From Oscillospiraceae bacterium (GTDB lineage: Bacteria; Bacillota; Clostridia; Oscillospirales; Oscillospiraceae), in NCBI GenBank assembly GCA_902760845.1, contig CACWHX010000007.1, forward strand, positions 10,050 to 74,049: a stretch of DNA of 64,000 bases. Direction: 5' to 3'. Made by a program: the position numbers and the translations under genes. Numbering within the stretch: position 1 is the stretch's first letter; each line of letters starts with the position of its first letter. Shown piece by piece: positions 9,522 to 26,224 of the stretch. The notes beneath the pieces were generated by a model that was not told the DNA's origin, did not search any database, and saw only the letters and a program-made list of their open reading frames with translations.

Positions 9522-9539
9522 CAATAAACAGGTACGAAA

Positions 9540-9574
9540 GCAGGGCCATCCCGTTCGGGATGGCCCTGCTTTTT
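9540..9574 (+). terminator. Rho-independent terminator after the aminotransferase gene
   Basis: GCAGGGCCATCCC-GTTC-GGGATGGCCCTGC followed by TTTTT. Confidence 0.75.
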
Positions 9575-9578
9575 CGCA

Positions 9579-9607
9579 TTGACGGCGCGCGGGTGCAACG
9601 GTATAAT
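9579..9607 (+). promoter_or_regulatory. Candidate promoter upstream of / overlapping the cwlD 5' end
   Basis: TTGACG-17 nt-TATAAT. The -10 element overlaps the first in-frame ATG (9606). Confidence 0.5.
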
Positions 9608-11725: not shown

Positions 11726-11768
11726 GGCCGGGAGGCAAAAAGACGGACAGACTTTCTGTAAAGAGCCG

Positions 11769-12026
11769 ATGCGGTTCTGGGCGGGATCAACGGTTCCCAA
11801 AGAGCGGATTACGGACGTGAAGGCATACAATCACGCAAACGGCATCCTGTGGATTGCGTTTTCACTGAGTCGGTGGGCGGCGGGACTGTCGGGGATTTGG
11901 AGCATGAAGCTCGCCGTGCGCATCATGACGATTGCCGACTCGGCCGGAATTGCCGTAGTGTTTGTGGGCTTACTGGCTGATCCGCAAAAAGTACAGAAAG
12001 AAAGCAAAAAGCGAATGAATCGTTGA
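11769..12026 (+). CDS. Hypothetical small membrane protein
   Basis: In-frame ATG at 11769. Two predicted helices (ILWIAFSLSRWAAGL, IADSAGIAVVFVGLL). No family recognised. A terminator hairpin follows. Confidence 0.3.
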   Translation: MRFWAGSTVPKERITDVKAYNHANGILWIAFSLSRWAAGLSGIWSMKLAVRIMTIADSAGIAVVFVGLLADPQKVQKESKKRMNR

Positions 12027-12152
12027 AATCGTCGATTTCTCCTCCCCTAAATTCGGCAAAATTTTCATTTTGCCGAATTTTCTGTGTATTTTGTCAATGG
12101 ACAGGCCACCTCCCCGTTTGATATAATGCGTCTGGAAAGCGAGGCGTTTTTC

Positions 12153-13172
12153 ATGGACTACAGCGATGCACCGCAGGTGCTGCGCGATTTTTTGATTTAT
12201 CATGAGACGATCCGCGGTCACTCCAAAGCGACTGTGGATGAATACTATTTGGACCTGCGCACATTTTTCCGCTATCTGAAATTATCGCGCGGCATTGTCC
12301 CGCGTGCCGCGGAGCTTGAGGAAATCCCAATCCAGGATATCGACGTCCCCTTCGTCGCCGCGGTGACCTTAACGGAGATTTATGATTTTCTGGCATATCT
12401 GTCGCGCGACCGGGTCAAGCAGCCAAACAGCCCCGAACCGGAATACGGCTTGACGCCGGCCTCCCGCGCGCGAAAAATCGCCGCGATCCGCAGCTTCTTT
12501 AAGTACGTGACGGTCAAGGCAAAGCTCCTAGATGAAAATCCTGTGCAGGACCTGGACTCCCCGAAGATCCCCAAGTCCCTCCCCCGCTACCTGACATTGG
12601 AAGAGAGCCAGCGACTGCTCTCAGCCGTAGATGGAAAAAACCAGGAACGCGATTATTGCATTCTCTGTGTTTTTCTCAACTGTGGGTTGCGTATCTCGGA
12701 ACTGGTCGGTCTGAATGTCAACGACTATCGCGGGGAGAGTCTGCGCGTGCTCGGCAAGGGCAGCAAGGAGCGGACGGTCTATCTGAACGATGCCTGCCGG
12801 GAGGCGATCGACCGCTACCTGGAGGTGCGAAAGCTGCTTGCTCCTCCGCGTATGGCCGCGCTGTTCCTGTCAAACCGGCGGGCACGCATCAGCGTGGACG
12901 CCGTACAGGTGATCGTAAAAAAGAATCTCGCCAAAGCGGGTTTGGACGCGAGCCTCTATTCCACGCACAAACTGCGGCATACGGCGGCGACGCTGATGCT
13001 GCAAAACGGCGTGGACGTTCGCACGCTGCAGGAGGTGCTGGGGCACGAAAATCTGAACACAACACAGATTTATACGCACATCGACAGCGCAGAACTGCGC
13101 ACGGCGGCAGCGGCCAATCCGCTTGCCGGCTTCTCCCCTTCCGCAAAAAAGGACGAGACGACCGAGGAATAA
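12153..13172 (+). CDS. Tyrosine-type site-specific recombinase (XerC-like)
   Basis: Catalytic C-terminus HKLRHTAATLMLQNGVDVRTLQEVLGHENLNTTQIYTH. ATG 12153 chosen within ORF 12084..13172. Confidence 0.85.
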   Translation: MDYSDAPQVLRDFLIYHETIRGHSKATVDEYYLDLRTFFRYLKLSRGIVPRAAELEEIPIQDIDVPFVAAVTLTEIYDFLAYLSRDRVKQPNSPEPEYGLTPASRARKIAAIRSFFKYVTVKAKLLDENPVQDLDSPKIPKSLPRYLTLEESQRLLSAVDGKNQERDYCILCVFLNCGLRISELVGLNVNDYRGESLRVLGKGSKERTVYLNDACREAIDRYLEVRKLLAPPRMAALFLSNRRARISVDAVQVIVKKNLAKAGLDASLYSTHKLRHTAATLMLQNGVDVRTLQEVLGHENLNTTQIYTHIDSAELRTAAAANPLAGFSPSAKKDETTEE

Positions 13173-13208
13173 AAAATTGCAGTCTGAACGATGTCAGGCT
13201 GCAATTTT
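13171..13208. terminator. Bidirectional terminator hairpin between the Xer-like gene and the ATPase-like gene
   Basis: ATTGCAGTCTGA...TCAGGCTGCAAT stem flanked by an A-run and a T-run. Confidence 0.6.
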
Positions 13209-13221
13209 ATTAGAATGAGTG

Positions 13222-14892
13222 TCATTGATTTTTTGGCAGGAGGTCGCGCAGGCGGCGGTGCGGCTGGTCGAAGCCAAACGCCCGGATGGAAAGCAGCAGC
13301 GTCGAGAGCGCGGCCGCACCGTCGAGCACAACAGCAAACCAGATCGTGCATTTTCCCAGGAGCGCCAACGCGATCAGAATCGCCTTGACCGCAGCGGAAA
13401 TCAGCAGATTTTCCCGGCAAAGGCCGCTGACCCATACCGAGGTCTCAATCGCATCCGGAATGAGCTGCAAATCCCGCTCCAGAATCAGCATGTCTGCGTC
13501 GAATTGTCCGCCGTTGTTTTCGTCGATCATGCAGGCGTCTACGTCCGCGGCGGAGTGCTGCGGATGGGAGACACTGTCGCGCTCTATGTAAAGAAGCGAC
13601 TCATCCGCCGGCATGGACGATTGGAGCTCCTCCAAAACCCGGCGCTTTTCCTCCGGCGAGAGCTTGCAGTAAAGCTGCTCGGCCTTCAAATCCCTGGCGA
13701 TTTGCGTGACGGAGTCGTTCTGTGCGCCGCTGAACAGCGTCAGCGACCGAACGCCCTGGTTGCGCAGATCCTGCATGGCGGGAACCGCGTCCGCATTGGA
13801 CACTTCCTTCAGCAGCAGCTTTCCGGCGTAATTGTCCTTTACGGAAACGTACACAACGTAATCATCGGTCAAATCTTCATCCGGAATCGTGATCCCATTG
13901 AGAATCATAAGCTCCCGCGTTCCGACACAGATGCGCAGGTTGCTGATATAGGCCTCCACGCCGCACTCCGGAATATCCAGCGCGCGGTCGATCAGCTTGC
14001 TGTCCAACTCGCCGTTATACGCGGCCAGAATCGCGCGCGCGGTGCGGCTGTTGGATCGGCTCTCCGCGTGCGCGGCCAGCTTCAGCAGCAGCTCTGCGGG
14101 AAGCTTTTCGGATTTCACGGAGGCGACCTTGGGCAAATCGTCGCTGGTTGCGCTGCTGTCATCCAGAACCACGGCACGCACCTGCGTCAGCCTGCGCATG
14201 GCGCGGCAGGAGCGAAACAGCACGTTGTTCGCGTACGCGCCATTTGCCGCGCAGTACCACGTGAGCGGCGCCCCAACCAGCATGGCGCAGGGGTTGGCAA
14301 TGATGAGAACGCTCAACGCGCTTCGCACCGCAATTGCCGCAGAGGCCTCGCGCACCCAAAACTGCACGATAAAAATGACGAGCGCCAAAATCAGCCCGCC
14401 CGGGGCAATCCATCGAATCCATTGCGGCGCCGGGAGGACGGCCGAGGAGCGAACTTCGGCGCCGACGGCGTCCTGCAGCGTTTGCAGCGTGCGGTCTGTG
14501 ACATAGCCGATCAGCAGCGTGACGATGCGATACAGAATCAAAAACGCCGCGGCGTCAACGGGGTCGCCCACGATCAGGGCAAGGAGCGCACAAAACGTCA
14601 CAATAACCGCGCCGGTGAGCGGCTTTCCCTGCATCAAAGACAGCGCCGCGCCGGCGATATAGTCATAGCCGGCGACAAGAACCGAGACAATCAGCAGAAG
14701 GTACCACAGCGCGCCGCCCGTCTGCAAAAACAGACCGATGACCATCAGGACCGCTGCAAGCGCAAGGCGAATGAGCAGCGTGCTCCCCTTTCCGCCGTCC
14801 CGAGCCAGGGAAAGCTTCGTCCATCCATCGTCCGGCAGATCGGCGGAAAAACACGTCATTGCCAGAACGGCCAACTGATTCCGGATGTTCAT
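13222..14892 (-). CDS. Degenerate P-type (P1B-like) ATPase homologue lacking catalytic motifs
   Basis: 556 aa. TM bundle plus P/N-domain-like region collinear with heavy-metal ATPases. However, DKTGT is replaced by DDSSA, CPC by NPC and TGDN by SGAQND, and no GDGxND or TGE motif was seen. RBS AAAGGAGG. Confidence 0.7.
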   Translation of the reverse strand: MNIRNQLAVLAMTCFSADLPDDGWTKLSLARDGGKGSTLLIRLALAAVLMVIGLFLQTGGALWYLLLIVSVLVAGYDYIAGAALSLMQGKPLTGAVIVTFCALLALIVGDPVDAAAFLILYRIVTLLIGYVTDRTLQTLQDAVGAEVRSSAVLPAPQWIRWIAPGGLILALVIFIVQFWVREASAAIAVRSALSVLIIANPCAMLVGAPLTWYCAANGAYANNVLFRSCRAMRRLTQVRAVVLDDSSATSDDLPKVASVKSEKLPAELLLKLAAHAESRSNSRTARAILAAYNGELDSKLIDRALDIPECGVEAYISNLRICVGTRELMILNGITIPDEDLTDDYVVYVSVKDNYAGKLLLKEVSNADAVPAMQDLRNQGVRSLTLFSGAQNDSVTQIARDLKAEQLYCKLSPEEKRRVLEELQSSMPADESLLYIERDSVSHPQHSAADVDACMIDENNGGQFDADMLILERDLQLIPDAIETSVWVSGLCRENLLISAAVKAILIALALLGKCTIWFAVVLDGAAALSTLLLSIRAFGFDQPHRRLRDLLPKNQ

Positions 14893-14925
14893 ATAAGAGG
14901 CCTCCTTTCGGAGCGTTCCGTCGTT

Positions 14926-15867
14926 TCAGGCTTTTCCGTCGCAGCCGAGCACGTCGATGATCTTGTGCTTTACAAGCTGTTTGATGTTCTCACGCGCGGG
15001 GCCAAGATATTTTCTCGGGTCAAATTCACTGGGATTTTCGTCAAAATACTTGCGGATCGTGCCGGTCATTGCCAGGCGCAGATCCGAGTCGATGTTGATC
15101 TTGCAGACGGCCATCCGCGCGGCTTCGCGCAGCTGATCCTCCGGCACGCCGATGGCGCCGGGCATCGCGCCGCCGTGCTCGTTGATCATCTGCACGTATT
15201 CCTGCGGTACTGAGGAGGAGCCGTGCAGTACGATCGGGAATCCGGGCAGACGCCGGGAAACCTCCTCTAGGATATCAAAGCGAAGCTGCGGCTTTGTGCC
15301 GGGCTTGAATTTGTAGGCGCCGTGGCTGGTGCCGATTGCGATGGCCAGAGAGTCGCAGCCCGTGCGCTCGACAAACTCCTGCACATCCTCCGGGCGCGTG
15401 TAAGAGGAGTCCTCCGCGCTGACCCGCACCTCGTCCTCGATGCCGGCCAGGGTGCCAAGCTCCGCCTCCACAACGACGCCGTGATCGTGGGCATACTCCA
15501 CGACCTGCCGCGTGAGCGCGATGTTCTCCTCAAACGATTTGGAGGATGCGTCGATCATAACGGAGGTGAAGCCGTCATCCACACAGGACTTGCAAAGCTC
15601 GAACGAATTGCCGTGATCCAGATGCAGGCAGATCGGAAGGCCCGTTTCGATCACAGCGGCCTCGACAAGCTTGACCAGATAGGTGCGGTTGGCATACTTT
15701 CTCGCGCCGGAAGACACCTGCAGAATGACAGGCGCATTGCACTCCTTTGCCGCTTCGGTAATGCCCTGGATGATTTCCATGTTGTTCACGTTGAACGCGC
15801 CGATCGCGTATCCGCCCTGATAGGCTTTCTCAAACATTTCCGTAGAAGTTACAATTGACATTGACAA
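14926..15867 (-). CDS. fba: Class II fructose-bisphosphate aldolase
   Basis: GAFNVNNME, ICLHLDHG and VLHGSSSVP motifs. 313 aa. Confidence 0.95.
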   Translation of the reverse strand: MSMSIVTSTEMFEKAYQGGYAIGAFNVNNMEIIQGITEAAKECNAPVILQVSSGARKYANRTYLVKLVEAAVIETGLPICLHLDHGNSFELCKSCVDDGFTSVMIDASSKSFEENIALTRQVVEYAHDHGVVVEAELGTLAGIEDEVRVSAEDSSYTRPEDVQEFVERTGCDSLAIAIGTSHGAYKFKPGTKPQLRFDILEEVSRRLPGFPIVLHGSSSVPQEYVQMINEHGGAMPGAIGVPEDQLREAARMAVCKINIDSDLRLAMTGTIRKYFDENPSEFDPRKYLGPARENIKQLVKHKIIDVLGCDGKA

Positions 15868-16006
15868 CTCATCATCCTTTCCGATATTATTATACCGTTG
15901 GCGAAACTTCCCGCCGATTGCTTATACTATCATAGTATTGTACACAATTTCAGAGATAATATCAATAGTCGAATTATATCAAACACGAAAATGGAGGGTG
16001 ATTTTT

Positions 16007-17248
16007 ATGGCAAAGGAATTGAAAGGCACCTGCATCATCGGCCAGTCCGGCGGGCCGACCGCGGTCATAAACGCCAGCGCGTACGGCGTAATTAAAACGG
16101 CGCTGGAGTCGAGCGCCATCACCCGCGTCTATGGCGCGGCGCACGGCATCAAGGGCGTTTTGGAGGATAAGCTTTATGACATGAATCAGGAGGATGCCTA
16201 CGAGCTGAGCCTGCTGCTGCATACGCCGTCGTCCGAGCTTGGCTCCTGCCGGTATAAGATGAAGGATCCGGATGCGGACGACACGGACTACAAGCGAATC
16301 CTGGAGATCTTCCGGAAATACGACGTGCGGTACTTCTTCTACAACGGCGGCAACGACTCCATGGACACCTGCGATAAAATCAGCAGATTCATGGCGAAGA
16401 GCGGCTGGGAGTGCCGCGTGATGGGCGTGCCGAAAACGATCGACAATGATCTGTACGGCACCGACCACTGCCCCGGCTTTGCCAGCGCGGCAAAGTATAT
16501 CGCGACATCCTGCATGGAGGTGTCCAAGGACGCAACGGTTTACGACAGCGGGCAAATCACGATCATCGAAATTATGGGCCGCCACGCCGGATGGCTTGCG
16601 GCCAGCGCAAAGCTCGCGTCCTATTTTGGCGCCGGCCCCGACCTGATCTATCTGCCGGAGGTCGATTTTGACATGGATGCGTTCCTCGCCGACGTGCAGC
16701 GCCTGTACGCTGAAAAAGGAAAAGTGCTTGTCGCCGTCTCCGAGGGCATCCATTATGCCGACGGCAGCTTTGTCTCCGAGGCAAAGACCTCGGCAACGGA
16801 TGGATTCGGTCACGCGCAGCTCGGCGGGCTTGCCGCGCTGCTTGCCGGGATTGTCAAGGAACGTACCGGCGCGAAGGTGCGCGGCATCGAGCTTTCCCTG
16901 CTGCAGCGCTGCGGCGCGCACCTCGCGTCTCAGACCGATATCGACGAGGCGTTCAACGCCGGAAAAATCGCCGTGGAGGCGGCGGTAAGCGGCGAAACGG
17001 GAAAGATGGTCGCCTTCGCGCGTGAAACCGTGGACGGGCAGTATCGCTGCGTGACGAAGCTGATCCCGCTCACGGAGGTGGCAAACCTTGAAAAGAAGGT
17101 GCCGCTGGAATGGATCACCCCGGAGCATAATCAGGTTACGGATGCCTTTGTCGATTATGCGCTGCCGCTGATCCAGGGCGAGCCGCAGCTCCCGCTGGAG
17201 CATTCCATGCCGCGATACGCGCGCCTGAAAAAGATTCTCGCGGAGTGA
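16007..17248 (+). CDS. pfp: 6-phosphofructokinase, probably pyrophosphate-dependent
   Basis: GGPTAVINAS, GGNDS and GVPKTIDNDL motifs. ATG 16007 lies 8 nt after GGAGGG. Confidence 0.88.
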   Translation: MAKELKGTCIIGQSGGPTAVINASAYGVIKTALESSAITRVYGAAHGIKGVLEDKLYDMNQEDAYELSLLLHTPSSELGSCRYKMKDPDADDTDYKRILEIFRKYDVRYFFYNGGNDSMDTCDKISRFMAKSGWECRVMGVPKTIDNDLYGTDHCPGFASAAKYIATSCMEVSKDATVYDSGQITIIEIMGRHAGWLAASAKLASYFGAGPDLIYLPEVDFDMDAFLADVQRLYAEKGKVLVAVSEGIHYADGSFVSEAKTSATDGFGHAQLGGLAALLAGIVKERTGAKVRGIELSLLQRCGAHLASQTDIDEAFNAGKIAVEAAVSGETGKMVAFARETVDGQYRCVTKLIPLTEVANLEKKVPLEWITPEHNQVTDAFVDYALPLIQGEPQLPLEHSMPRYARLKKILAE

Positions 17249-17323: not shown

Positions 17324-18922
17324 ATGATCACTGTTGAAGACCTCTCGCTGCAGTACAGCGGTACCCCGCTGTTTTCCAAGGTGGATCTGCAGTTCACGCC
17401 CGGAAACTGCTATGGCATCATCGGCGCGAACGGCGCCGGGAAATCCACGTTTCTGAAAATTCTGTCCGGCACGCTTGAGCCGACCTCCGGGCAGGTACAT
17501 ATTGACCCCAAAGCGCGCATGTCTGTGCTTCAGCAGGATCAGACGATGTACGACGGCTTCTCTGTGATGGACACCGTTATCATGGGCAATCCGCGTCTTT
17601 ATGAGATCGGCAGAGAAAAGGATGCAATCTATGCCAAAGAGGAGATGACGGACGAGGACGGGATGCGCGCCTCCGAGTTGGAGGAGGAATTCGCGGAGCT
17701 CGGCGGCTGGGAGGCGGAATCGGACGCTTCCCGCATTCTGCAGGGATTGGGCGTGCCGCCGGAGCACCACGAAACACGTATGGCCGACATGGACCCGCGC
17801 CTGAAGGTCAAGGTCCTGCTGGCGCAGGCGCTGTTCGGCCACCCGGACATTATCCTGCTCGACGAGCCGACAAACAACCTCGACCTTGCAAGCGTCGTCT
17901 GGCTGGAGGATTTCCTCATGGATTATGACGGCACCGTGCTCGTCGTGTCGCACGACCGGTACTTTCTCAACAATGTCTGCACGCATATCGTCGATATTGA
18001 TTACGGAAAGATCAAGATGTATGTGGGCAATTACGACTTCTGGTATGAGTCCAGCCAGCTCATGCAGAAGCTGGTCAAGGATCAGAACAAGCGCGCCGAG
18101 CAGAAAATTCAGGAGCTGCAGACCTTCATCCAGCGCTTTTCCGCGAACAAGTCAAAATCCCGGCAGGCAACGTCTCGCCGAAAGCTGCTTGAAAAGCTCA
18201 CGGTCGAAGAGCTGCCCGCCTCCAGCCGGCGCTATCCCTGGGTCGGCTTCAAGGCCGAGCGCGAGCCAGGCAAGGATCGCCTGTTCGTCACAGAGATCAG
18301 CAAGACTGTGGACGGCGTGAAGCTTTTGAACCATGTGAGCTTCATCGTCGGAAAGGACGACAAGATCGCCGTCATCGGGAAAAATGAGCTCGCGGTCACG
18401 ATGCTGTTTAAAATCCTCATGGGCGATGAAGAGCCGGATGAAGGCACGGTGAAATGGGGCGTTTCAACCACGCAGGCCTACTTCCCTGTGGATCACAGCA
18501 GCTATTTCGACGGCTGCGATTATGACCTGATCGACTGGATGCGCCAGTTCTCCGCCGACAAGCGCGAGAGCTATCTGCGCACCTTCCTCGGCCGGATGCT
18601 GTTTTCCGGCGACGATGTGTATAAAAAAGTCTCCGTTTTGTCCGGCGGCGAAAAGGTGCGCTGCATGATTTCCAAAATGATGCTCAGCGGCGCAAATTTC
18701 CTCGTGCTGGATCAGCCGACGAACCACCTCGATCTGGAGAGCATCGCCGCGCTCAATAACGGCATGGAGGCATTTCCCTACAACATCATTTTTACCAGCC
18801 ACGATCATCAGCTGACGCAGACGGTCGCCAATCGCATCATCGAGATCACGGAGGACGGGTTCATTGACCGGATGTGCACCTACGACGAATATATGCACAT
18901 TGCCGGGGCGGAAGACATCTGA
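17324..18922 (+). CDS. ABC-F family ATPase (two ABC cassettes, no membrane domain)
   Basis: Walker A GANGAGKST, signature LSGGEKVR, second cassette. ATG 17324. Confidence 0.92.
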   Translation: MITVEDLSLQYSGTPLFSKVDLQFTPGNCYGIIGANGAGKSTFLKILSGTLEPTSGQVHIDPKARMSVLQQDQTMYDGFSVMDTVIMGNPRLYEIGREKDAIYAKEEMTDEDGMRASELEEEFAELGGWEAESDASRILQGLGVPPEHHETRMADMDPRLKVKVLLAQALFGHPDIILLDEPTNNLDLASVVWLEDFLMDYDGTVLVVSHDRYFLNNVCTHIVDIDYGKIKMYVGNYDFWYESSQLMQKLVKDQNKRAEQKIQELQTFIQRFSANKSKSRQATSRRKLLEKLTVEELPASSRRYPWVGFKAEREPGKDRLFVTEISKTVDGVKLLNHVSFIVGKDDKIAVIGKNELAVTMLFKILMGDEEPDEGTVKWGVSTTQAYFPVDHSSYFDGCDYDLIDWMRQFSADKRESYLRTFLGRMLFSGDDVYKKVSVLSGGEKVRCMISKMMLSGANFLVLDQPTNHLDLESIAALNNGMEAFPYNIIFTSHDHQLTQTVANRIIEITEDGFIDRMCTYDEYMHIAGAEDI

Positions 18923-20583
18923 TGGAACAGCTGGCGAAAAATCAGCGGCATACCGCGGAGATCACCGGATATGCTGCGGACGGCTCCGGCGTCTGCCGCG
19001 TCGGGGGCCGCGCGGTATTTGTAAAAAACACCGTCGTGGGCGAGACCTGGGAGATCCGCATCCTCAAGGTGACCGCTGCGGCGGTGTACGGGAAGGCGGA
19101 ACGCTGCGTCACGCCGTCGCCGAATCGGCGGGAGCCCCCCTGCCCTGTTTATCCGAAATGCGGCGGGTGCAGTCTCCTGCACATGACATACGACGAAGAA
19201 CTTCGCATGAAGCGCACACGCATAAACGACGCGCTGCGGCGGATCGGCGGGCTCGATTTTCAGATTACTGAAATCCTCGGCATGGACCGTCCGGAGCATT
19301 ACCGCAACAAGGCGATTTATGCCGCTGGCATGTCGGATGGTGTGCCGGTCAAAGGGTTTTATCGCGCGCTGAGTCACGATGTCATACCGGTAGCGTCGTG
19401 TCTTCTGCAGCAGCCGCTTGCCGACCGCGCGGCGGAGACCGTATGCCGCTGGATGGCGTCGCACAACGTCGCGCCCTATGACGAAGCGACCGGCAAAGGC
19501 ACGGTGCGTCACATTGTTATCCGCTGTGCCGCGCAGACCCCGGAGGCCGTGCTCTGCATCGTCTCGGCGCGCGGATTCGGCGCGCGGACAGAGCAATTGG
19601 TCGAGACGCTCCGCGCTCGGTGTCCGGAGCTCACCGGCATCGTGCTGAACGTGAACAAGCAAAAGGGCAATGTCGTGCTCGCCGGAGACTTTTATACGCT
19701 CTGGGGAAAGGCAGAACTGGAGGACGTTTTGTGCGGCCTTCGCTTCACACTCTCGCCGCAAGCGTTTTACCAGGTGAATCCGGTCCAGGCGGAGCGGCTG
19801 TATGCGCGCGCGGTATCGTACGCCGTCGCGTCGCCGGCGGATACGGTGCTGGATCTCTACTGCGGAGCGGGAACGATCAGCTTGTGCCTGGCGCAGCGCG
19901 CCGCGCGCGTGATCGGCGCCGAGATCGTGCCGGAGGCGGTGCGCAACGCGGCGGAAAACGCGAGGGCCAACGCCGTTGAGAACGCGGAGTTTCTCTGCGC
20001 CGACGCGGGCGAAGCCGCCGCCTTGCTGGCAGAGCGCGGCATGAGGCCCAATTGCGTTGTGGTCGATCCGCCGCGCAAGGGCATGGCCGAGGCGGCCACT
20101 CGCGCCGTCGCGTCCATGCGGCCGGAGCGTATCGTCTATGTCTCCTGCGACCCCGGAACGCTTGCGCGTGACCTAAAGCGCCTGCACGAGCTGGCCTACT
20201 CCCCCGCCGCCGGCACCGCCGTCGATATGTTTCCGCACACGGCAAGTGTGGAGACGGTATGTCTCCTAACCCGAGAAAAATCCGTCAAGAGCTACGCGTA
20301 TGTTGACATCACCCCGTCGGAGCTTGGCATGGGCGGAAAGGTCAAGAAGCCGACGTACAAGCAGATTCAGGCTTACGTGCTGGAGACGCACGGCCTGAAG
20401 GTGTCCCCGCTGTACATCGCGAACGTCAAGGACGAGTTCGGGCTGGAGAAGCAGTTCTCCTACGAAGAAGCCGGGATGTCGGCGAAGAAGCGTCCGAACT
20501 GCCCGCCGGAGAAGCGTGCGGCGATTATCGACGCGCTCATCCACTTCGGCATGCTGGACGAAGACGCCAGAGAGACCGAGTAA
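18922..20583 (+). CDS. rlmD: 23S rRNA (uracil-5-)-methyltransferase RumA/RlmD with a chimeric, element-derived C-terminal tail
   Basis: TRAM domain, Fe-S cysteines CPVYPKCGGCSLLH, SAM motifs DLYCGAGTISL, DPPRKG, VYVSCDP, FPHTASVETV. From about nt 20262 the ORF continues into about 105 non-RumA codons. Confidence 0.9.
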   Translation: MEQLAKNQRHTAEITGYAADGSGVCRVGGRAVFVKNTVVGETWEIRILKVTAAAVYGKAERCVTPSPNRREPPCPVYPKCGGCSLLHMTYDEELRMKRTRINDALRRIGGLDFQITEILGMDRPEHYRNKAIYAAGMSDGVPVKGFYRALSHDVIPVASCLLQQPLADRAAETVCRWMASHNVAPYDEATGKGTVRHIVIRCAAQTPEAVLCIVSARGFGARTEQLVETLRARCPELTGIVLNVNKQKGNVVLAGDFYTLWGKAELEDVLCGLRFTLSPQAFYQVNPVQAERLYARAVSYAVASPADTVLDLYCGAGTISLCLAQRAARVIGAEIVPEAVRNAAENARANAVENAEFLCADAGEAAALLAERGMRPNCVVVDPPRKGMAEAATRAVASMRPERIVYVSCDPGTLARDLKRLHELAYSPAAGTAVDMFPHTASVETVCLLTREKSVKSYAYVDITPSELGMGGKVKKPTYKQIQAYVLETHGLKVSPLYIANVKDEFGLEKQFSYEEAGMSAKKRPNCPPEKRAAIIDALIHFGMLDEDARETE

Positions 20584-20598
20584 ATACCGAACGAACAG

Positions 20599-20627
20599 GC
20601 CAGCGGGCAACGTCCCGCTGGCTTTTG
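20599..20627 (+). terminator. Rho-independent terminator after the chimeric rumA tail
   Basis: GCCAGCGGG-CAACGT-CCCGCTGGC followed by TTTTG. Confidence 0.7.
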
Positions 20628-20759
20628 TCGTATGTGGGCTTATTTTCTCAAAATTTTTCTCAAAAACTTATTTTAGACCGCCCCTCGCAGACGCCGACAG
20701 CATCGGCCTCCGCAAAGGCATTGCCCCAGGTCAGGCTATTTATCGGGTTGCACGAACTG

Positions 20760-20789
20760 TTGACAGTATGACACAACCCGAGTTATAAT
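20760..20789 (+). promoter_or_regulatory. Consensus sigma-A promoter inside the island
   Basis: TTGACA-18 nt-TATAAT read directly. Confidence 0.6.
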
Positions 20790-20911
20790 ATAGTCACAAG
20801 ATGAACGAAGGGCATCTTGGAACCGGGAAACCGGTCAGGTACTTTGATAAATGAATAAACACAACAAGATTCGTGACCATAAGTTCCTTAGCAGGCAACG
20901 CCAATAAGCCC

Positions 20912-20969
20912 TGCACAAGCCATAGACCGTGACGGGTTTATGCACAAGCCATAGACCGTGACGGGTTTA
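20912..20969 (+). repeat. Perfect tandem duplication, 2 x 29 nt
   Basis: TGCACAAGCCATAGACCGTGACGGGTTTA occurs at 20912-20940 and again at 20941-20969. Confidence 0.9.
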
Positions 20970-21058
20970 TGGTGACGGAGCACAGCGTCAAAGTGGGTTC
21001 ACTGTCCGCCCGATACTGAGCGGATATAACTTGCACGATTCCACATACATAAAGTGAG

Positions 21059-21135
21059 AAGCGGCGAATCCGAGTTGTGGCATATGGATTTATTTCCAAT
21101 ATGTCATGACTCGGGTTCGCCGCTTTTTTGTTTTT
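21059..21135 (+). terminator. Long-stem terminator ending the untranslated island transcript
   Basis: 17-bp stem AAGCGGCGAATCCGAGT / ACTCGGGTTCGCCGCTT (one G-U pair), 33-nt loop, then TTTTTTGTTTTT. Confidence 0.65.
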
Positions 21136-21159
21136 CAAACACAAAAGGAGGCAAAGGAA

Positions 21160-21441
21160 ATGGCAAACGAAAACAGCACGCAGACGGCTCTGCAGGAGCC
21201 TGATTCCGACATCGAGAAGCGGCTCGAAATCGAGAGCCTTTTCGGTGAGGTGGAGGCGGCGCGTTCCGAGATTAGCGCGCTCAACTGGTGCATCCAGCGC
21301 ATGGAGTACGCGCTCAGGAGCAGGAACATCCGTGGAGAAATCCGCCAGCTGGTCGTTGAAGCCCGTGACTGGGTGGACGACAGCAACAAGACCATCGCAG
21401 AGCTGGAGAAGCACATCACAACAATACGAGAGGAGATTTAG
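21160..21441 (+). CDS. Hypothetical small coiled-coil protein
   Basis: 93 aa starting MANENSTQ. RBS AAAAGGAGG. Heptad-like, E/R/I-rich sequence. No family recognised. Confidence 0.5.
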   Translation: MANENSTQTALQEPDSDIEKRLEIESLFGEVEAARSEISALNWCIQRMEYALRSRNIRGEIRQLVVEARDWVDDSNKTIAELEKHITTIREEI

Positions 21442-21788
21442 CAATGAGCACTTACGACATCAGCGGTCTGGATTGGCAGACGGCACACAACAACAGCACG
21501 GCAGCTCCGAGTTACCGTGAGAGCGACGGTATGACAAAGGTCGCAGATTCTTTCTATGAGGGACAGATTCACAGCGTGGACGCGGTGTTCTGCGAGGGTT
21601 ACCTGCGCGGATTGAACCACGCGCTGCGCATGCTCGGGCTTGAGATTATACCACTGGAACACCTCGTCCCACGGTGCGCAGTCACCGCTCACGAGTTCCA
21701 GCGGGCGCTTCGCCATCTCATTCGCGAGAACCATGTCCCCGGCGGTGCGTGCAAGGTCGGCGTATGTCTTGATGTTTTCGTATGCCAT
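21438..21788 (-). CDS. Hypothetical protein; only the 5' half looks genuine (antisense to 21444..21962)
   Basis: Strong RBS AGGAAGGGA lies 7 nt before ATG 21788. The N-terminus MAYENIKTYADLARTAGDMVLANEMAKRPLELV is protein-like, but the C-terminal part is Cys/Arg/Val-rich. Confidence 0.35.
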   Translation of the reverse strand: MAYENIKTYADLARTAGDMVLANEMAKRPLELVSGDCAPWDEVFQWYNLKPEHAQRVVQSAQVTLAEHRVHAVNLSLIERICDLCHTVALTVTRSCRAVVVCRLPIQTADVVSAHC

Positions 21789-21962
21789 TGTTGCTCCCTT
21801 CCTTTCTTCACGCGTACCGTCGAAGCCGCCCCGCGGCTTTTCCCCTGCATCATCCACCTCGCCCACCCCGTAAAAGGCAGCATCATCCACTCCGTACACA
21901 GCAGGAGGGTGGATTTGAGGTTGATGTGCTTCAAGTTTTTGAGAATTTCGGCCACTTTTTGA
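21444..21962 (+). CDS. Hypothetical protein; only the 5' half looks genuine (mutually exclusive with 21438..21788 minus)
   Basis: GAGGAG RBS lies 8 nt upstream. The N-terminal ~70 residues are protein-like, but the C-terminal part is Cys/Val-rich and runs into the repeat region. Confidence 0.3.
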   Translation: MSTYDISGLDWQTAHNNSTAAPSYRESDGMTKVADSFYEGQIHSVDAVFCEGYLRGLNHALRMLGLEIIPLEHLVPRCAVTAHEFQRALRHLIRENHVPGGACKVGVCLDVFVCHCCSLPFFTRTVEAAPRLFPCIIHLAHPVKGSIIHSVHSRRVDLRLMCFKFLRISATF

Positions 21963-22337
21963 GAATTTTAGGCCTGTTTTTGAGAATTTCGGAGAGTTTT
22001 TGAGAGTGAAAAAGGGCGCTCCGGGAGGCAAAAACGTTCGTAAACGAGGGTTTTTCTTTTATTTTTTCTTAAAAATTCTCAAAAACTCAAAAAAATTGGA
22101 AGAAAGTTCCTATAGAGCCTTTCAAAGTCCTTTGCCTATATATATAAAAGTTCCAAAAAAAATGAGTTTTTGAGAATTTAGCCCGTTTTTGCGCTTAGTA
22201 TGGCTTACTGTGGGATACTGTGAGCAAACGTGGTCTCAAAACATTCTCAAAAACGGCTTTTCACTCTCATTTTTGCCTTAAAATTCTCAAAAACTCAGCC
22301 CTCCTGCTGTGTACGGAGTGGATGATGCCTCCTTTTA
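21871..22337. repeat. Long inverted repeat (39 bp arms, inner 30 bp perfect) bracketing a 389-bp AT-rich repeat region
   Basis: The left arm at 21871-21909 is the reverse complement of 22299-22337 (37/39 matches). The perfect core is GCATCATCCACTCCGTACACAGCAGGAGGG. Confidence 0.85.
21935..22012 (+). repeat. Four phased iteron-like direct repeats (consensus GTTTTTGAGAATTTYRG)
   Basis: Copies start at 21935, 21955, 21976 and 21996 (spacing 20, 21 and 20 bp). Further copies lie at 22166 (+) and at 22075, 22243 and 22283 (inverted). Confidence 0.8.
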
Positions 22338-22355
22338 TGCGGGAGCGGCGCATGT

Positions 22356-22392
22356 AATAAAAAAGACGCCACCCGATTGTTCGGATGGCGTC
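22356..22392 (-). terminator. Rho-independent terminator of the surface-protein gene
   Basis: On the minus strand, GACGCCATCC-GAACAATC-GGGTGGCGTC followed by TTTTTTATT. Confidence 0.7.
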
Positions 22393-22411
22393 TGTGTCGC
22401 GACGGTATGTG

Positions 22412-23569
22412 TTAGCGGGTCGCTCCGCAGTCACAATACTGGTAGTCCACGTAAGTCTGTGTCTCGTAGTGGCCGTGGTCTTCCGTGTGGGAACCGACAG
22501 GGACGCGCTGAGTCTCGTAGATGGTTTCCATGCGGTAGTTATCGGCGTAACCCTGCTTAATGAGTTCAACGCCATGCGCCTTAGCTGTGCCGGGGTCTGT
22601 GGTCACGAAGCCGTCGTATGCGAAGATATACGTCGTGCCGACAGCTACCTGCTGGTCTGCGTAGTCAGTCACGGTTACAATGTTCGGAACCCAGACCTGC
22701 TTGGTCGCGGTGTGGTCCTTCCAGCTGTGGCTGTGCGCCGGTGCGGAAGGCTGGCTCGAAGAACCGCCTGAAGGCTTGCTGGAAGTGCTGGAACCGTTGT
22801 TGCTGGAACCGGAGTTTCCTGCGTTGGAACCGCTGTTGCCGTTGCTGTTGGCGTTGCCCTTGTCGCTCGTGTTGCCGTTATCGCCTGAAGGCGTCGTAGC
22901 CTCCGGCTTGCTGTCCACGTCGACCTCCTTGTCGGCGTCCGTGGCCTCCTGCTTTGTCTCGTCGGAGGCGTTCGGGTTGTTGGCCACGTTGCCTTCCAAC
23001 TTGTCGAGAATGTCCTTGCCGGCGTCGCCCTTCAAGGTCTCGTCACCGTTCTCGACGGCGTCCTTCGTCTGGTCGACGATGCCCTTGAGCATCTCGTCAG
23101 TCACCTTGTCGGCCGGGATTCGCGTCATCTCGCAGGTCACGCTCAGCGTGTCCGTCGCGTCGGCATCGACCGTCACGGTCTGCGCCTCGCCCGTGTCGAA
23201 CAGCTCGTAGGCGGAGCCGTCCGCGTTGACAGGGCTGATGAAGTCGACCGTGTAGTCTCCCTCTTCGAGGGTGACGGTCGATGTGCCCTTGTTGCCTTCG
23301 GCTTCCGGCGAAACCGCGTGGTAGAAGTCCACCTCATCGCTCGTGATATGGGCGATGGCCGGAGTGGAGTTCGCATCCCAGCCGGTGTCGGCGGTCACGT
23401 TGAGGACGAGGTCGGCGGTCTCATCCTTTGCTGTGCTGTTCTGCTTGTCTGCTGTGGAAAATGCGCCTGACGCTGCTGCAATTACGACGGCAACGACTGC
23501 GATGATAGCGATAGCGATTGCCGCTGTATGCGGTTTGTGAGATTTAATCCAGTCAGTTGCCTTCTTCAT
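22412..23569 (-). CDS. Membrane-anchored surface protein with S/G/N-rich linker (hypothetical)
   Basis: 385 aa. N-terminal anchor AAIAIAIIAVVAVVIAAASGAF, acidic middle domain, low-complexity linker GNANSNGNSGSNAGNSGSSNNGSSTSS, His/Cys-containing C-terminal domain ending YCDCGATR. Confidence 0.7.
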   Translation of the reverse strand: MKKATDWIKSHKPHTAAIAIAIIAVVAVVIAAASGAFSTADKQNSTAKDETADLVLNVTADTGWDANSTPAIAHITSDEVDFYHAVSPEAEGNKGTSTVTLEEGDYTVDFISPVNADGSAYELFDTGEAQTVTVDADATDTLSVTCEMTRIPADKVTDEMLKGIVDQTKDAVENGDETLKGDAGKDILDKLEGNVANNPNASDETKQEATDADKEVDVDSKPEATTPSGDNGNTSDKGNANSNGNSGSNAGNSGSSNNGSSTSSKPSGGSSSQPSAPAHSHSWKDHTATKQVWVPNIVTVTDYADQQVAVGTTYIFAYDGFVTTDPGTAKAHGVELIKQGYADNYRMETIYETQRVPVGSHTEDHGHYETQTYVDYQYCDCGATR

Positions 23570-23836
23570 TTAGTCCACCTCTATTCCTTCTGTGTCTGGG
23601 GCGTCAAACGTGAAGCCCGCATGGTCATCGTTGACTATTGTGGCAAGCCCGCCGAATCCTCCGAACGTCATGTCGTAGACGGTCTGTTTTTCAACAGGAG
23701 ACAGCTGGATGCTTTCATTGGTAATTGCGTCCCCGGCAGGGAAAGACCTTCTATCTATACCCCGTGTCAATACGTCGTAAGGGTCTTGTTCCTCATCGTT
23801 CACCTGTACTGTGGCGAAGGAGTATAGAAGAAGCAC
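23570..23836 (-). CDS. Hypothetical protein, probably 5'-truncated; stop abuts the start of 22412..23569
   Basis: The ORF opens only with a GTG at the junction with the recombinase remnant. Its stop codon directly precedes the next gene's ATG. No family recognised. Confidence 0.35.
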   Translation of the reverse strand: MLLLYSFATVQVNDEEQDPYDVLTRGIDRRSFPAGDAITNESIQLSPVEKQTVYDMTFGGFGGLATIVNDDHAGFTFDAPDTEGIEVD

Positions 23837-24219
23837 TCGATGAGGCCGAGGCGAAGCTGGAGAGCGCGAAAGAGAAGCAGGTCACGACCGCGAGGGTGTA
23901 CGAGATGCTGGACGAGTTCCAGGAGAAATTCGACACGTACGACCCGGCGAAGCAGAAGGAGATTCTGCAGCAGGTCGTGGAGCGTGTGGAGATAGACCCG
24001 GACGCGAACCCGAAGAAGGGCGACGCGATAGTGAAGCGCGTGCGCTTCAAGTGCCCCGTGTCGTTCTACAGAACGCTGCCGGAAGAGGCTTACGACGTGC
24101 TCGGCATCAACGAGTTCAACCGCCTCGAAACGACGGAATACACGCCTGATGGAAATTCCCGGGTTGATGGGAATCACGACGAGACGGTTGTGTTGTTGCA
24201 TAGATCAAAATCAAGCTGA
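23827..24219 (+). pseudogene. C-terminal remnant of a large serine recombinase, reading across attR into the last rumA codons
   Basis: EEALDEAEAKLESAKEKQ (coiled coil) ...FQEKFDTYDPAKQKEILQQVVERVEIDP...VKRVRFKCP matches the C-terminal pattern of large serine recombinases as I remember it. No resolvase catalytic domain is present upstream. Confidence 0.55.
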
Positions 24220-24337: not shown

Positions 24338-24529
24338 ATGACAAAACGGCTGTACAAAATCGAAGAAGGCAAAATGCTGGACGGCGTTTGCGGCGGTGTC
24401 GCGGAATATTTCAATATTGATCCGACGGTGGTTCGCCTGATTTGGGCGTTCGCCGCAGCGTCCGGTGGTGGCGTCGTGGCGTATCTCATCTGTGCGCTGG
24501 TCTTTCCGAAGAAATCTGAGGTTATCTAA
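24338..24529 (+). CDS. PspC domain-containing protein
   Basis: LDGVCGGVAEYFNIDPTVVRLIW followed by a TM helix. 63 aa. Confidence 0.88.
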   Translation: MTKRLYKIEEGKMLDGVCGGVAEYFNIDPTVVRLIWAFAAASGGGVVAYLICALVFPKKSEVI

Positions 24530-24538
24530 AAGGAGGAC

Positions 24539-24961
24539 ATGATGCAATATAAACGATTTGACAATACGATCTTTGTCCGAATTGACAAGGGCGAGGAGAT
24601 CCTGGAACAGATCAAAGTCCTGGCTGAGGCGGAAAACATCAAGCTTGCAAGCGTGTCGGCGCTCGGCGCAACGAACGACTTTACCGTCGGCGTATTCAAA
24701 ACCGAGGAGAAAAAATACTACGCCAACCATTTCACAGGCAACTTTGAAATCGTCTCCCTCACAGGGACGATCAACACTCTGAACGGCGAATTTTACACCC
24801 ATATCCATATGAGCGCCGGCAACGACAGGGGCGAGGTGTTCGGCGGGCATCTCAACCGCGCGATGGTAAGCGCAACGTGCGAGATGGTTGTCACCGTGGT
24901 TGAAGGCCGCGTAGACCGTCGGTTTGACGAAGAAATTGGACTGAATCTCCTGCGGTTTTAA
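24539..24961 (+). CDS. PPC (DUF296) domain DNA-binding protein
   Basis: 140 aa. Pattern ...FEIVSLTGTI....HIHMSAGN..GEVFGGHL typical of PPC/DUF296. RBS AGGAGG. Confidence 0.85.
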   Translation: MMQYKRFDNTIFVRIDKGEEILEQIKVLAEAENIKLASVSALGATNDFTVGVFKTEEKKYYANHFTGNFEIVSLTGTINTLNGEFYTHIHMSAGNDRGEVFGGHLNRAMVSATCEMVVTVVEGRVDRRFDEEIGLNLLRF

Positions 24962-25057
24962 TCATCGACACGTTGCGGCATTCCTCTGAATGTCCTGTAT
25001 GTTAGCATGTCCGGATGGGGCAACCTATCAACAACGATTCTGAAAGGAGCGAAAACG

Positions 25058-25375
25058 ATGGATTTTTCAAAGACGCTGGAAGACGCGAAGGCCGAGGTTG
25101 AAAGCCTGTTGGCCAAGACCGAGGTGGACGACAAGATCAAGGCAAAGGCCAATGAGATCAAGACAAAGGTTGACGAGGTCCTGAAGGACAAGAATATCGA
25201 CGAGACCGTCAAGGCAAAAGCGGAGGGCCTGAAAACAAAGGTCGATACGTTTCTCCAGAGCACGGAGATCGACGATAAGCTCAAGGCCAAAGCGGGCGAG
25301 CTGAAGGAAAAGGCCGGCGGCATGGCCGGCGAATGGAAGGACAAAGTCGGCGATATGCTGAAGAAAACCGAGTGA
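25058..25375 (+). CDS. Small hydrophilic repeat protein (LEA/stress-protein-like)
   Basis: 105 aa. Three ~24-aa repeats of E(V/I)DDK(I/L)KAKAxE(I/L)KxKVD. RBS GAAAGGAG. Confidence 0.6.
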   Translation: MDFSKTLEDAKAEVESLLAKTEVDDKIKAKANEIKTKVDEVLKDKNIDETVKAKAEGLKTKVDTFLQSTEIDDKLKAKAGELKEKAGGMAGEWKDKVGDMLKKTE

Positions 25376-25436
25376 TAGACCCATCCGCACCGCCGTTGAC
25401 AGCAAGTCGGCGGCGGTGCAGGTGATTTGGGAGGAA

Positions 25437-25868
25437 ATGCGCATGATATATGATTTGGACCGCTTTCTTCAGGCGCAGTCCGGAAGCTACGAAACCGCGC
25501 TGCGGGAGATCCGCAGCGGACGCAAACGCAGCCATTGGATGTGGTATATCTTTCCGCAGATTCAAGGCCTGGGCTTCAGCGCCACGGCGCAGTATTACGC
25601 CATTCGCGACCTGCAGGAGGCAAAGGAATACCTGCGGCACCCGACGCTGCGGGCGCGGCTGCTGGAGATTTCCGAGGCGCTGCTGACGCTGGACTCCCGC
25701 GACGCTGCCGCCGTATTCGGCTGGCCGGACGATATGAAGCTGCACTCCAGTATGACGTTGTTCGCCGAGGCGGAGCCGGCGTGCACGGTGTTTCAGGATG
25801 TGCTGCGGCAGTATTTCCACGGAAACAAAGATGAAAAAACGCTTCAGATTCTGCGGGATGCACAGTAA
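25437..25868 (+). CDS. DUF1810 family protein
   Basis: DLDRFLQAQ...YETALREIRSGRKRSHWMWYIFPQIQGLG matches the DUF1810 signature. Confidence 0.88.
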   Translation: MRMIYDLDRFLQAQSGSYETALREIRSGRKRSHWMWYIFPQIQGLGFSATAQYYAIRDLQEAKEYLRHPTLRARLLEISEALLTLDSRDAAAVFGWPDDMKLHSSMTLFAEAEPACTVFQDVLRQYFHGNKDEKTLQILRDAQ

Positions 25869-25931: not shown

Positions 25932-25981
25932 ACCAATGTTCACGCAATAGAAGCTCCCTTGAAAGGAAAGGATTGAATAGA

Positions 25982-26224
25982 ATGTCTGCTTTGAGCATTG
26001 TTATCACGGTTCTTCAGCTTCTCTCCGGCCTCGCGCTCACCGTTATTGTGCTGATGCAGTCCGGCAAGAGCGCCGGCCTCTCCGGCGCCATTTCCGGCGG
26101 CGCGGAGACGTTTCTCTCCAAAGGCAGGGCCAAAACGCTGGACGCCAAGCTCGCCAAAATGACGAAGTGGTTTGGGCTCGGGTTCGTGCTGCTGACGCTG
26201 GTGTTGACCGTTGTGATCCACTAA
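25982..26224 (+). CDS. secG: Preprotein translocase subunit SecG
   Basis: 80 aa with two TM helices and the central motif MQSGKSAGLSGAISGG. Confidence 0.9.
   Translation: MSALSIVITVLQLLSGLALTVIVLMQSGKSAGLSGAISGGAETFLSKGRAKTLDAKLAKMTKWFGLGFVLLTLVLTVVIH

Follow-up and report, generated by a model that had tools for sequence, protein, structure and literature searches.

The window analysed here, a stretch of 64,000 nucleotides (nt) from an Oscillospiraceae bacterium (GenBank assembly GCA_902760845.1, contig CACWHX010000007.1, positions 10,050 to 74,049 of the forward strand), carries a rumA (rlmD) gene which is interrupted close to its 3' end by an insert of 3,930 bp (Table 1). The open reading frame (ORF) 18922-20583 on the plus strand codes for 553 amino acids (aa) and scores 395 bits against the rumA model TIGR00479 (cut-off 183.6), with residues 20-444 covering model positions 4-432 of 432. 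Under this equivalog model it is a full-length RlmD/RumA 23S rRNA (U1939-C5) methyltransferase. The match to PF05958 stops at residue 451, within ...SVETVCLL (DMFPHTASVETVCLL). After the residues ETV, the ORF continues in frame for 106 codons (20263-20580) which match no family in Pfam or NCBIfam and, among the PHROGs, only weakly phrog_27283 (no assigned function). The final 12 codons of rumA (ETVVLLHRSKSS and stop) are displaced to 24181-24219, where they close a plus-strand ORF of 164 aa (23725-24219; C-terminus ...NHDETVVLLHRSKSS and stop). The gene is thus broken at the GA dinucleotide 20251-20252, within a GAG codon 12 codons ahead of its natural stop. The initial annotation of this stretch had described a canonical rumA with an unlike tail and, 3.9 kb downstream, a plus-strand ORF ending like RumA, and both observations were borne out.

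Joining 18922-20258 to 24189-24219 in silico yields a RumA of 455 aa with the C-terminus SVETVVLLHRSKSS. Uninterrupted orthologues have 448-461 aa and similar C-termini (e.g., HVETVVLMSKEK and HVETVVLLQRR), and most of the 120 closest RumA homologues fall into the same length range of 448-461 aa and end in HVETV followed by 8-15 residues (e.g., VVLMSKEK, VVLLQRR, VVLLTRRKL). The 553-aa "RumA" is a chimera. Among the loci fetched for comparison (L numbers; proteins carry P numbers), three from related genera (L032-L034, RumA 77-78% identical) have a RumA of 453-461 aa without an insert. Their neighborhood is that of the window: genes for an aldolase, phosphofructokinase (PFK), and an ABC-F protein, shared upstream of rumA by the window and its uninterrupted relatives, then rumA, followed by secG, DUF436, DUF3048, and RNase J. 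The attachment site attB reconstructed for the window is matched by the 3' end of rumA in L032 (CACGTTGAGACGGTTGTATTGATG...). In two closer relatives (L035 and L036, RumA 80% identical), the rumA site is filled by other elements, and it is therefore a hotspot in this clade too. The initial annotation had called rumA an integration hotspot for conjugative as well as mobilizable integrative elements (ICEs and IMEs, respectively) with serine recombinases, in accordance with the literature (PMC4120198, PMC4701971). In L035, the closest other genus with the same synteny, the site holds an unrelated element with TnpV and a MobA_MobL relaxase (11667-16264). Contigs often stop within L035-type elements at rumA.

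The 8-mer GAGACGGT is found at both ends of the insert (20251-20258 and 24181-24188), in equal codon phase (GAG ACG GTn, coding for E T V). It had initially been proposed as the shared core. It is indeed present at both positions, but by itself it is no more than chance: the window has four occurrences on its two strands, with about two expected (2 x 64,000 / 65,536). The two positions are significant because it is here that homology with other hosts' copies of the element starts and stops, beginning at 20248-20251 and ending at 24191-24195. At the left junction, attL, a comparison of six hosts shows host-specific sequence upstream of GAGACGGT and conserved sequence from GAGACGGT on. At the right junction, attR, three hosts are conserved through ...AATCACGACGA (the element end is also given as ...CACGACGA) and then diverge, the window continuing as GACGGTT, L001 as AACAATT, and L002 as GTGCGTA. 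The bases GA are the only ones common to both junctions in all three hosts, which points to GA at 20251-20252 / 24181-24182, rather than the 8-bp core, as the most likely crossover. The 8-bp identity in this host would then arise because the ETV codons of the host match those of the element. For vanG and ICE-r elements, Srinivasan et al. (2014, PMC4120198) described a GA target in a GAG codon about 11 codons ahead of the rumA stop, and TndX needs a central GA (PMC4430133). Across the crossover (slash), the predicted attB reads ...AGTGTGGA/GACGGTTGTG..., and the reconstructed attP has an imperfect inverted symmetry (15/28 positions) with a distal TTGGGC block, as would be expected for the site of a large serine recombinase.

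DNA of the same element, 97-99% identical, is present in more than 20 unrelated gut bacteria: in L001 (a low-GC Clostridia contig), in L002 (Streptococcus alactolyticus), and at 19 metagenome loci. The latter are the 19 further copies found in metagenome contigs, most of them labelled human gut, with a 45-nt probe from the left end. Copies are full in L015, L018, and L026 (10.84 kb, mutual identity 97-98%, three hosts) and in L019 (~11.5 kb; L011 is a partial copy of this type), so that the intact relatives of 10.8-11.5 kb which the initial annotation had suggested searching for do exist. The gene order in L019 is as follows: the tail ORF; a promoter and structured leader; orf108 and orf126 (no function assigned to either); a 587-aa P4-family primase (TIGR01613 with 179 bits, cut-off 108.7; D5_N/DUF5906/Pox_D5; phrog_864 with 1.6e-77); orf109 (no function assigned); orf147, a phage-type transcriptional regulator (147 aa; phrog_36 with 4.7e-11 and a weak match to the ArpU family, TIGR01637, E = 1.9e-4); orf422; orf173 on the minus strand (no function assigned); an AT-rich iteron block; orf385 and orf354, both on the minus strand and without a family; an Xre regulator (HTH_3); and a recombinase of at least 594 aa with the domains Resolvase, Recombinase, and Zn_ribbon_recom (phrog_95 with 407 bits). 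The recombinase, which is complete in L018, L019, and L026, matches Resolvase (PF00239) with E = 3.5e-38, Recombinase with 4e-23, Zn_ribbon_recom with 1.7e-9, and PDB entry 3guv with E = 7.6e-50. The P4-family primase, the Xre regulator, and the recombinase are shared by the 10.84-kb copies L015, L018, and L026. For orf422, no match was obtained in Pfam, NCBIfam, or the PDB sequences, and its PHROG match, phrog_31146, has no assigned function; an HxDE..HxH-like motif, read by eye, suggests a putative MOBV-like relaxase.

The window copy aligns with L019 in three segments (Table 1), which leaves two thirds of the DNA of an ~11.5-kb element lost in two deletions. At the first, L019 1347 is the counterpart of window 21648, and L019 5892 that of window 21647. 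The ORF 21444-21962 (172 aa) is an artefact of this deletion, consisting of the first 68 codons of orf126 and an out-of-frame remainder. In L031, which is from the same host species (98.9% identical over 18737-21648), the sequence continues across the deletion-1 point into orf126, there a full 126-aa gene, and the primase; deletion 1 therefore arose in situ. Junction 1 recurs in L030, and junction 2 in P0001 with the same junction peptide, both from other samples and independent assemblies, so that an assembly artefact is ruled out. The GC content within the insert spans 35% to 64%, in line with the compositional heterogeneity noted initially.

What survives of the recombinase is a stretch of 120 codons, which matches the large serine integrase family phrog_95 at profile positions 492-586 of 651 (E = 5e-7). 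It is 96-99% identical to the C-termini of full-length Resolvase + Recombinase + Zn_ribbon_recom proteins in the intact copies, and 99% identical at the nucleotide level to L018 and L019. This agrees with the initial proposal that the right-hand ORF is the C-terminal part of a large serine recombinase. The first 33 codons of the ORF 23725-24219 are antisense orf354 sequence; its end reads ...NHDE/TVVLLHRSKSS and stop, and homologous recombinases end in host-specific RumA-type tails. The catalytic resolvase domain is present in the parent and absent from the window, and a tblastn search of the 64 kb returned no copy of this recombinase beyond the 120-codon piece. With residues 462-581 only, the window copy lacks the complete recombinase that autonomous integration and excision call for and is a decayed member of its class. 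The initial view of a fossil element thus stands, but about 130 recombinase codons had been assumed instead of 120, and the decay consists of two defined deletions, not of diffuse erosion. A family of integrase fragments composed solely of short proteins was also considered; it was rejected, as these are contig-end fragments or deletion variants of the full-length recombinase.

Table 1. Features of the interrupted rumA locus and of the element remnant (window positions).
Feature	Position	Strand	Remarks
rumA/rlmD 5' part	18922..20252	+	RumA residues 1-443 plus GA of the Glu-444 codon; TIGR00479, PF05958, upstream synteny
Segment matching L019 2-1347	20251..21648		94-99% identity
attL junction	20251..20258	+	core GAGACGGT, probable crossover GA 20251-20252; six-host comparison; GA target in PMC4120198, PMC4430133
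Left-end ORF of the element (tail)	20253..20583	+	106-codon tail after ETV, lacks its own start codon, fused in frame to RumA; would be the recombinase 3' end in the excised circle
Terminator-like hairpin	20599..20622	+	GC-rich, then TTTTG; directly after the tail stop codon
Sigma-70 consensus promoter	20760..20789	+	TTGACA-18-TATAAT, 12/12 matches; faces the replication/mobilisation operon of the element
29-bp tandem duplication	20912..20969	+	perfect; within the leader
Terminator/attenuator-like hairpin	21055..21135	+	74-nt hairpin and T-run; inverted repeat I3, ahead of orf111
orf111	21106..21441	+	first element gene, likely start ATG 21160; 89-99% identical in L011, L012, L019, L022 and others
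orf126, first 68 codons	21444..21647	+	cut by deletion 1; tblastn 98.5% to L019 residues 1-68 of 126
Segment matching L019 5892-8073	21647..23825		95% identity
Deletion-1 junction	21647..21648	.	microhomology TA; 4,544 bp gone: rest of orf126 through orf422 (P4-type primase, orf109, orf147, orf422)
orf173, N-terminal 128 codons	21648..22031	-	cut by deletion 1; tblastn 97% to residues 1-128 of 173
Iteron-like array	21934..22300	.	AT-rich array of ATTCTCAAAAA, 35-40% GC; candidate ori or oriT
orf385	22412..23569	-	cargo protein, 385 aa; N-terminal membrane anchor, S/N/G-rich linker; terminator-like hairpin 22364-22393
orf354, last 84 codons	23573..23824	-	319 aa in L018; cut by deletion 2; tblastn 90% to residues 271-354
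Deletion-2 junction	23823..23825	.	microhomology TAT; 3,043 bp gone: orf354 N-terminus, Xre, recombinase residues 1-461
Segment matching L019 11117-11485	23823..24191		99% identity
Large serine recombinase remnant	23824..24182	+	120 codons, residues 462-581 (coiled-coil end and C-terminal segment)
attR junction	24181..24188	+	core GAGACGGT, probable crossover GA 24181-24182; three-host comparison
Displaced rumA 3' end	24183..24219	+	last base of the Glu codon, then TVVLLHRSKSS and stop; now ends the recombinase remnant ORF

The tail at the left end (CLLTREKSVKSY...DARETE) is nearly identical on very different RumA proteins, namely those of L001 (479 aa), L002 (552 aa), and some 20 further hosts; across the fetched loci, it is joined to about 20 different RumA sequences. 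All 24 full-length copies compared (the window and 23 fetched loci) are intact, and polymorphic codons are synonymous-only in 19 cases and amino-acid-changing in 8. This pattern indicates that the tail is element DNA under purifying selection and a real coding sequence. The remnant, which has lost its recombinase, still carries an intact tail with the consensus amino acid sequence. The RumA-tail fusion protein is presumably still active. As in other rumA elements, the left-end ORF has about 100-115 codons, lacks a start, and is fused in frame to the 5' part of rumA. The odd RumA tail recognized initially, here 106 codons, is thus better described as the 3' segment which the recombinase gene would have in the excised circle than as read-through junk.

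The family of the tail is very large: clustering of 8,000 candidates puts it at no fewer than 7,838 clusters (90% identity), and there are 3,358 representatives at 50% identity; 13 columns are invariant in 119 sequences. What stands ahead of the tail in its members is RumA, a recombinase C-terminus, or some other sequence. AlphaFold2 modelling, with 11 and then 119 sequences, gave a mean pLDDT (predicted local distance difference test) of 60, the confident part being a three-helix core (residues 33-59 and 83-95, pLDDT ~80); the model had no Foldseek match in the PDB with E below 4, and no fold was assigned. In many tail-family proteins (P0137-P0404), the N-terminal part is neither RumA nor recombinase (ABC ATPase-like, membrane proteins), which suggests secondary insertion sites or read-through ORFs. 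Proteins combining a recombinase with a tail were considered as proof of the excised attP form, but this was rejected: in the cases examined (L026, P0380, and P0008), the recombinase is paired with a different tail subfamily, which fits tandem insertion. In L026 (element 9091-11136), a recombinase ORF of 681 aa passes attR and runs on into the left-end tail of another, different rumA element. This is a tandem accretion at one rumA site, an explanation that also fits P0008 and P0380.

Given the boundaries of the insert, its parent element, both deletion junctions, the reading frames across the junctions, and the loss of the recombinase domains, we consider it very likely that the insert is the fossil of a site-specific integration into rumA, followed by decay through two deletions. 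An integrative element of ~11.5 kb, with a P4-type primase, a putative MOBV-like relaxase, an Xre regulator, surface-protein cargo, and a large serine recombinase, would have entered the rumA 3' end. An attP inside the recombinase gene would have recombined with an attB in the rumA coding motif ...H-V-E-T-V..., with the crossover at GA, and the gene ends would have been exchanged in frame because both sites share the codon phase. RumA (residues 1-444) would thereby have lost its last 11 residues and gained a 106-residue tail after the shared T-V, and the recombinase (residues 1-581) would have lost its tail segment and gained the last 11 codons and the stop of RumA. The excised circle would hold one continuous recombinase gene of ~690 aa, reading ...NHDETV/CLLTREKS...DARETE and stop. 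Two later deletions in this host lineage, both microhomology-mediated (4,544 bp and 3,043 bp), would have stripped the element of its genes for replication and mobilisation, of its regulator, and of the catalytic, recombinase, and zinc-ribbon domains of its recombinase, leaving a remnant of 3,930 bp unable to move by itself.

Several results weigh against this history. The comparison with empty sites, suggested in the initial annotation, succeeded for insert-free syntenic RumA in related genera but not within the species: a same-species empty attB was not recovered, the exact 26-mer being absent from the JGI metagenome contigs. Likewise, the 27-mer of the excised attP junction of this lineage was not found in IMG/VR. 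At none of the 22 loci with the left-end 45-mer (19 from metagenomes and L008-L010 from a genome scan) does a recombinase lie upstream. By megablast, the whole insert is absent from phage and plasmid collections, and there is therefore no annotated reference record for comparison. The GA crossover is deduced from three independent insertions and the literature, and orf422 has no Pfam relaxase match, its MOBV assignment going back to the motif read by eye.

The class to which the parent element belongs can be read in a second way, as a phage satellite, an island similar to phage-inducible chromosomal islands (PICIs), or a prophage remnant, which would make the window copy a decayed satellite. 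Several features would be in keeping with this. The parent has the size of a satellite (11 kb), its integrase lies at one end, its repressor is of the Xre type, its P4-family primase has an iteron/AT-rich block beside it, and its 147-aa protein resembles phage transcriptional regulators (phrog_36; weakly TIGR01637); the L002 copy has a GH25/CW_7 lysin and a holin. We nevertheless hold a satellite to be unlikely. The parent has no capsid, terminase, or packaging-interference gene, and searches of the window insert with Pfam and PHROGs revealed no genes for structure, packaging, or lysis. Neither IMG/VR, where the left-end 45-mer has no match, nor the phage collection contains the element. Moreover, orf422 has the MOBV-like HxDE..HxH motif read by eye, the corresponding region of a distant Collinsella relative codes for a MobC/NikA-like protein, and the published rumA elements with serine integrases are ICEs or IMEs.

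The copy in L002 (2700-10490) is another decayed one, with its recombinase split into ORFs of 318 and 170 aa and a different cargo which comprises, besides the lysin and holin, an EcoRI-like methylase and GmrSD/HNH. Distant relatives of the element are found in Collinsella (Actinomycetota; L003-L006) and in Ruminococcaceae UBA1417 (L007); at the nucleotide level, their left end is ~79% identical and orf385 71-72%. The only annotated Collinsella locus, L004, codes for a D5-type primase in addition to the MobC/NikA-like protein. Collinsella MobC and a 509-aa protein were considered as homologues of orf147 and orf422 and rejected (BLASTP E = 0.3-0.8).

Decay into an immobile fossil could also be questioned. 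Under this alternative, the remnant would still be mobile as a non-autonomous element of the cis-mobilizable (CIME) type which keeps both att sites and, in the iteron block, a cis-acting origin, and it would be excised and transferred whenever a related recombinase and a helper are in the same cell. In intact copies, attL, attR, and their flanking half-sites are 95-99% identical to those of the remnant, and the form with both deletions is also seen in other samples (L030, P0001). Of the internal segments, only an AT-rich, iteron-bearing block of ~400 bp is kept by every independent deletion derivative (the window, L001/L024, and L002), with 96-98% identity. As rumA elements occur in tandem (L026; PMC4120198), a helper recombinase could sit adjacent. 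Each of these points has its counterpart: L030 matches the host sequence of the window, so that vertical inheritance in a single species may account for the recurrence; just three derivatives could have kept the block by chance; the 64 kb contain no second recombinase of this family; and neither an attB junction (JGI metagenome contigs) nor an attP junction (IMG/VR) was found. We regard present-day mobility as distinctly improbable. That there was no insertion at all, the long tail being native to the RumA of this clade and the downstream ...ETVVLLHRSKSS ORF end a coincidence, has next to no probability, for although ~15% of the closest RumA homologues bear tails of ~90-105 residues from one sequence family, the identical tail sits on RumA proteins sharing little sequence (Streptococcus, low-GC Clostridia, the high-GC host) with the break exactly at GAGACGGT, every fetched locus with this tail (24/24 full-length copies) continues into element DNA and none is the insertion-free genome which the initial annotation had named as a refuting case, the long-tailed relatives checked run into other mobile elements (e.g., TnpV and MobA_MobL in L035), and short-tailed relatives with the same synteny exist.

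Site-specific integration followed by two deletions places the window copy in a documented class: it is a decayed member of the rumA-targeting serine-recombinase elements, and its kind is not novel. Such elements in Firmicutes include vanG-1/vanG-2 and ICE-r (Srinivasan et al. 2014, PMC4120198) as well as ICESp2905, ICE_Spy2096_rumA, and IME_SpnAP200_rumA, which have integrases of family Ser_4 (Ambroset 2016, PMC4701971; Coluzzi 2017, PMC5357655). Reciprocal end exchange, a start-less left-end ORF, a recombinase gene without a stop, and tandem arrays have already been published for streptococcal and Roseburia rumA elements (PMC4120198, PMC4701971). The window shares with the published elements the insertion after GA in a GAG codon near the rumA 3' end (12 codons before the stop here, ~11 there), a start-less left-end ORF (101-115 codons) fused in frame to the rumA 5' part, and, with reciprocal exchange of ends, a serine recombinase gene at the right end which has no stop of its own and is fused to rumA 3' codons; tandem insertions are shared by L026. 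In contrast to them, the element is small and has no conjugation module, the parent having only a P4-type primase and a putative relaxase, and the window copy lacks the catalytic, recombinase, and zinc-ribbon domains. The host also differs from that of the streptococcal elements, being a high-GC gut Clostridia (Oscillospiraceae-like by RumA similarity). The likeness to Ser_4 elements such as ICESp2905 described here is one of architecture.

Three further systems are comparable. CIMEs, dICEs, and dIMEs (Guedon group) likewise keep both att junctions and cargo and have lost recombination and transfer genes by internal deletion, but for the window remnant the precise parent and both deletion junctions are identified. 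In phage Mx8 (intP/intX), as in the parent, attP lies within the integrase coding sequence so that integration changes the integrase C-terminus; however, Mx8 Int is a tyrosine recombinase, and in the window the ends have been exchanged reciprocally with a protein-coding gene of the host, with the frame kept on either side. TndX (Tn5397) and TnpX (Tn4451) share the two-base GA crossover at the target (PMC4430133) and the position of the recombinase gene at the element end. They differ in their target genes (Tn5397 prefers Fic-domain coding DNA) and no reciprocal swap of gene ends has been described for them; sequence kinship was compared at the family level only.

The remnant has kept further features of its parent. 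The promoter sits in the left-end block, which is 95-99% conserved in intact copies, and the 345-nt leader behind it (region 20760-21140) is strongly structured (fold z = -7.9) and might serve as an attenuator or give a small RNA. Alignment gaps of 29-41 nt relative to L011, L030, and L031 are consistent with a single copy of the 29-bp unit in these loci. No Rfam family was matched in the whole window at gathering thresholds, permissive thresholds produced only meaningless miRNA-precursor matches on the long hairpin, and the window has no tRNA. The product of orf111 has no significant family match in Pfam, NCBIfam, or PHROGs. PADLOC, applied to the cargo proteins, returned a weak match of orf111 to a BrxC fragment and nothing else. 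The sequence ATTCTCAAAAA has nine matches with at most one mismatch, all of them within the element (0.85 expected), and four copies are spaced 20-21 bp apart. We consider the block a candidate origin of replication (ori) for the P4-type primase or a candidate origin of transfer (oriT). The iteron-like array region comprises 20646-20670 in addition to 21934-22300. The latter is flanked by a 51-nt inverted repeat (86% complementary; 21866-21916 and 22292-22342), the left arm of which is outside the segment conserved in L001 and L002. The orf385 protein is 92% identical to its counterpart in L019, with 71-72% nucleotide identity in the Collinsella and Ruminococcaceae elements, and has no match in Pfam, NCBIfam, or PADLOC. 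Its long linker is rich in S/N/G/D, its conserved C-terminal domain contains Cys and His, and in every intact copy it is paired with orf354, of which L007 carries a full-length homologue of 315 aa.

The stretch from the rumA 3' end to secG (25973-26224) contains four small genes: a PspC-like gene (24338-24529) and the genes at 24539-24961, 25007-25375, and 25416-25868. None of them is present in the syntenic L033 and L034, and L032 has a single gene of 166 aa at this place. The block 24338-25868 may be a further lineage-specific insertion beside the hotspot.

For annotation, the 164-aa ORF 23725-24219 is to be described as a recombinase pseudogene joined to the true end of RumA, and the insert as a decayed integrative element. 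Its decay is in progress, since one host species holds both a less-deleted and a doubly deleted copy. The presence of the ~11-kb element in rumA of Streptococcus, of low-GC Clostridia, and of high-GC Oscillospiraceae-like gut bacteria means very recent transfer among gut Firmicutes via one conserved target, and rumA of Collinsella is occupied by a relative at a greater distance (left end ~79% identical). The remaining interest lies in the iteron block retained by deletion derivatives and in the tail domain. The latter, swapped between an integrase and RumA and called "of unknown significance" by earlier authors, is the only part that could lead somewhere new. It might be a state-dependent module, part of the recombinase solely while the circle is excised and part of RumA solely while the element is integrated, which may set the direction of recombination, as in the analogy to Mx8 IntP/IntX drawn in PMC4701971, or may alter the function of RumA or the ribosome. 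We offer this only tentatively and think it rather unlikely; if it were true, the RumA-tail fusion itself would be what is maintained.

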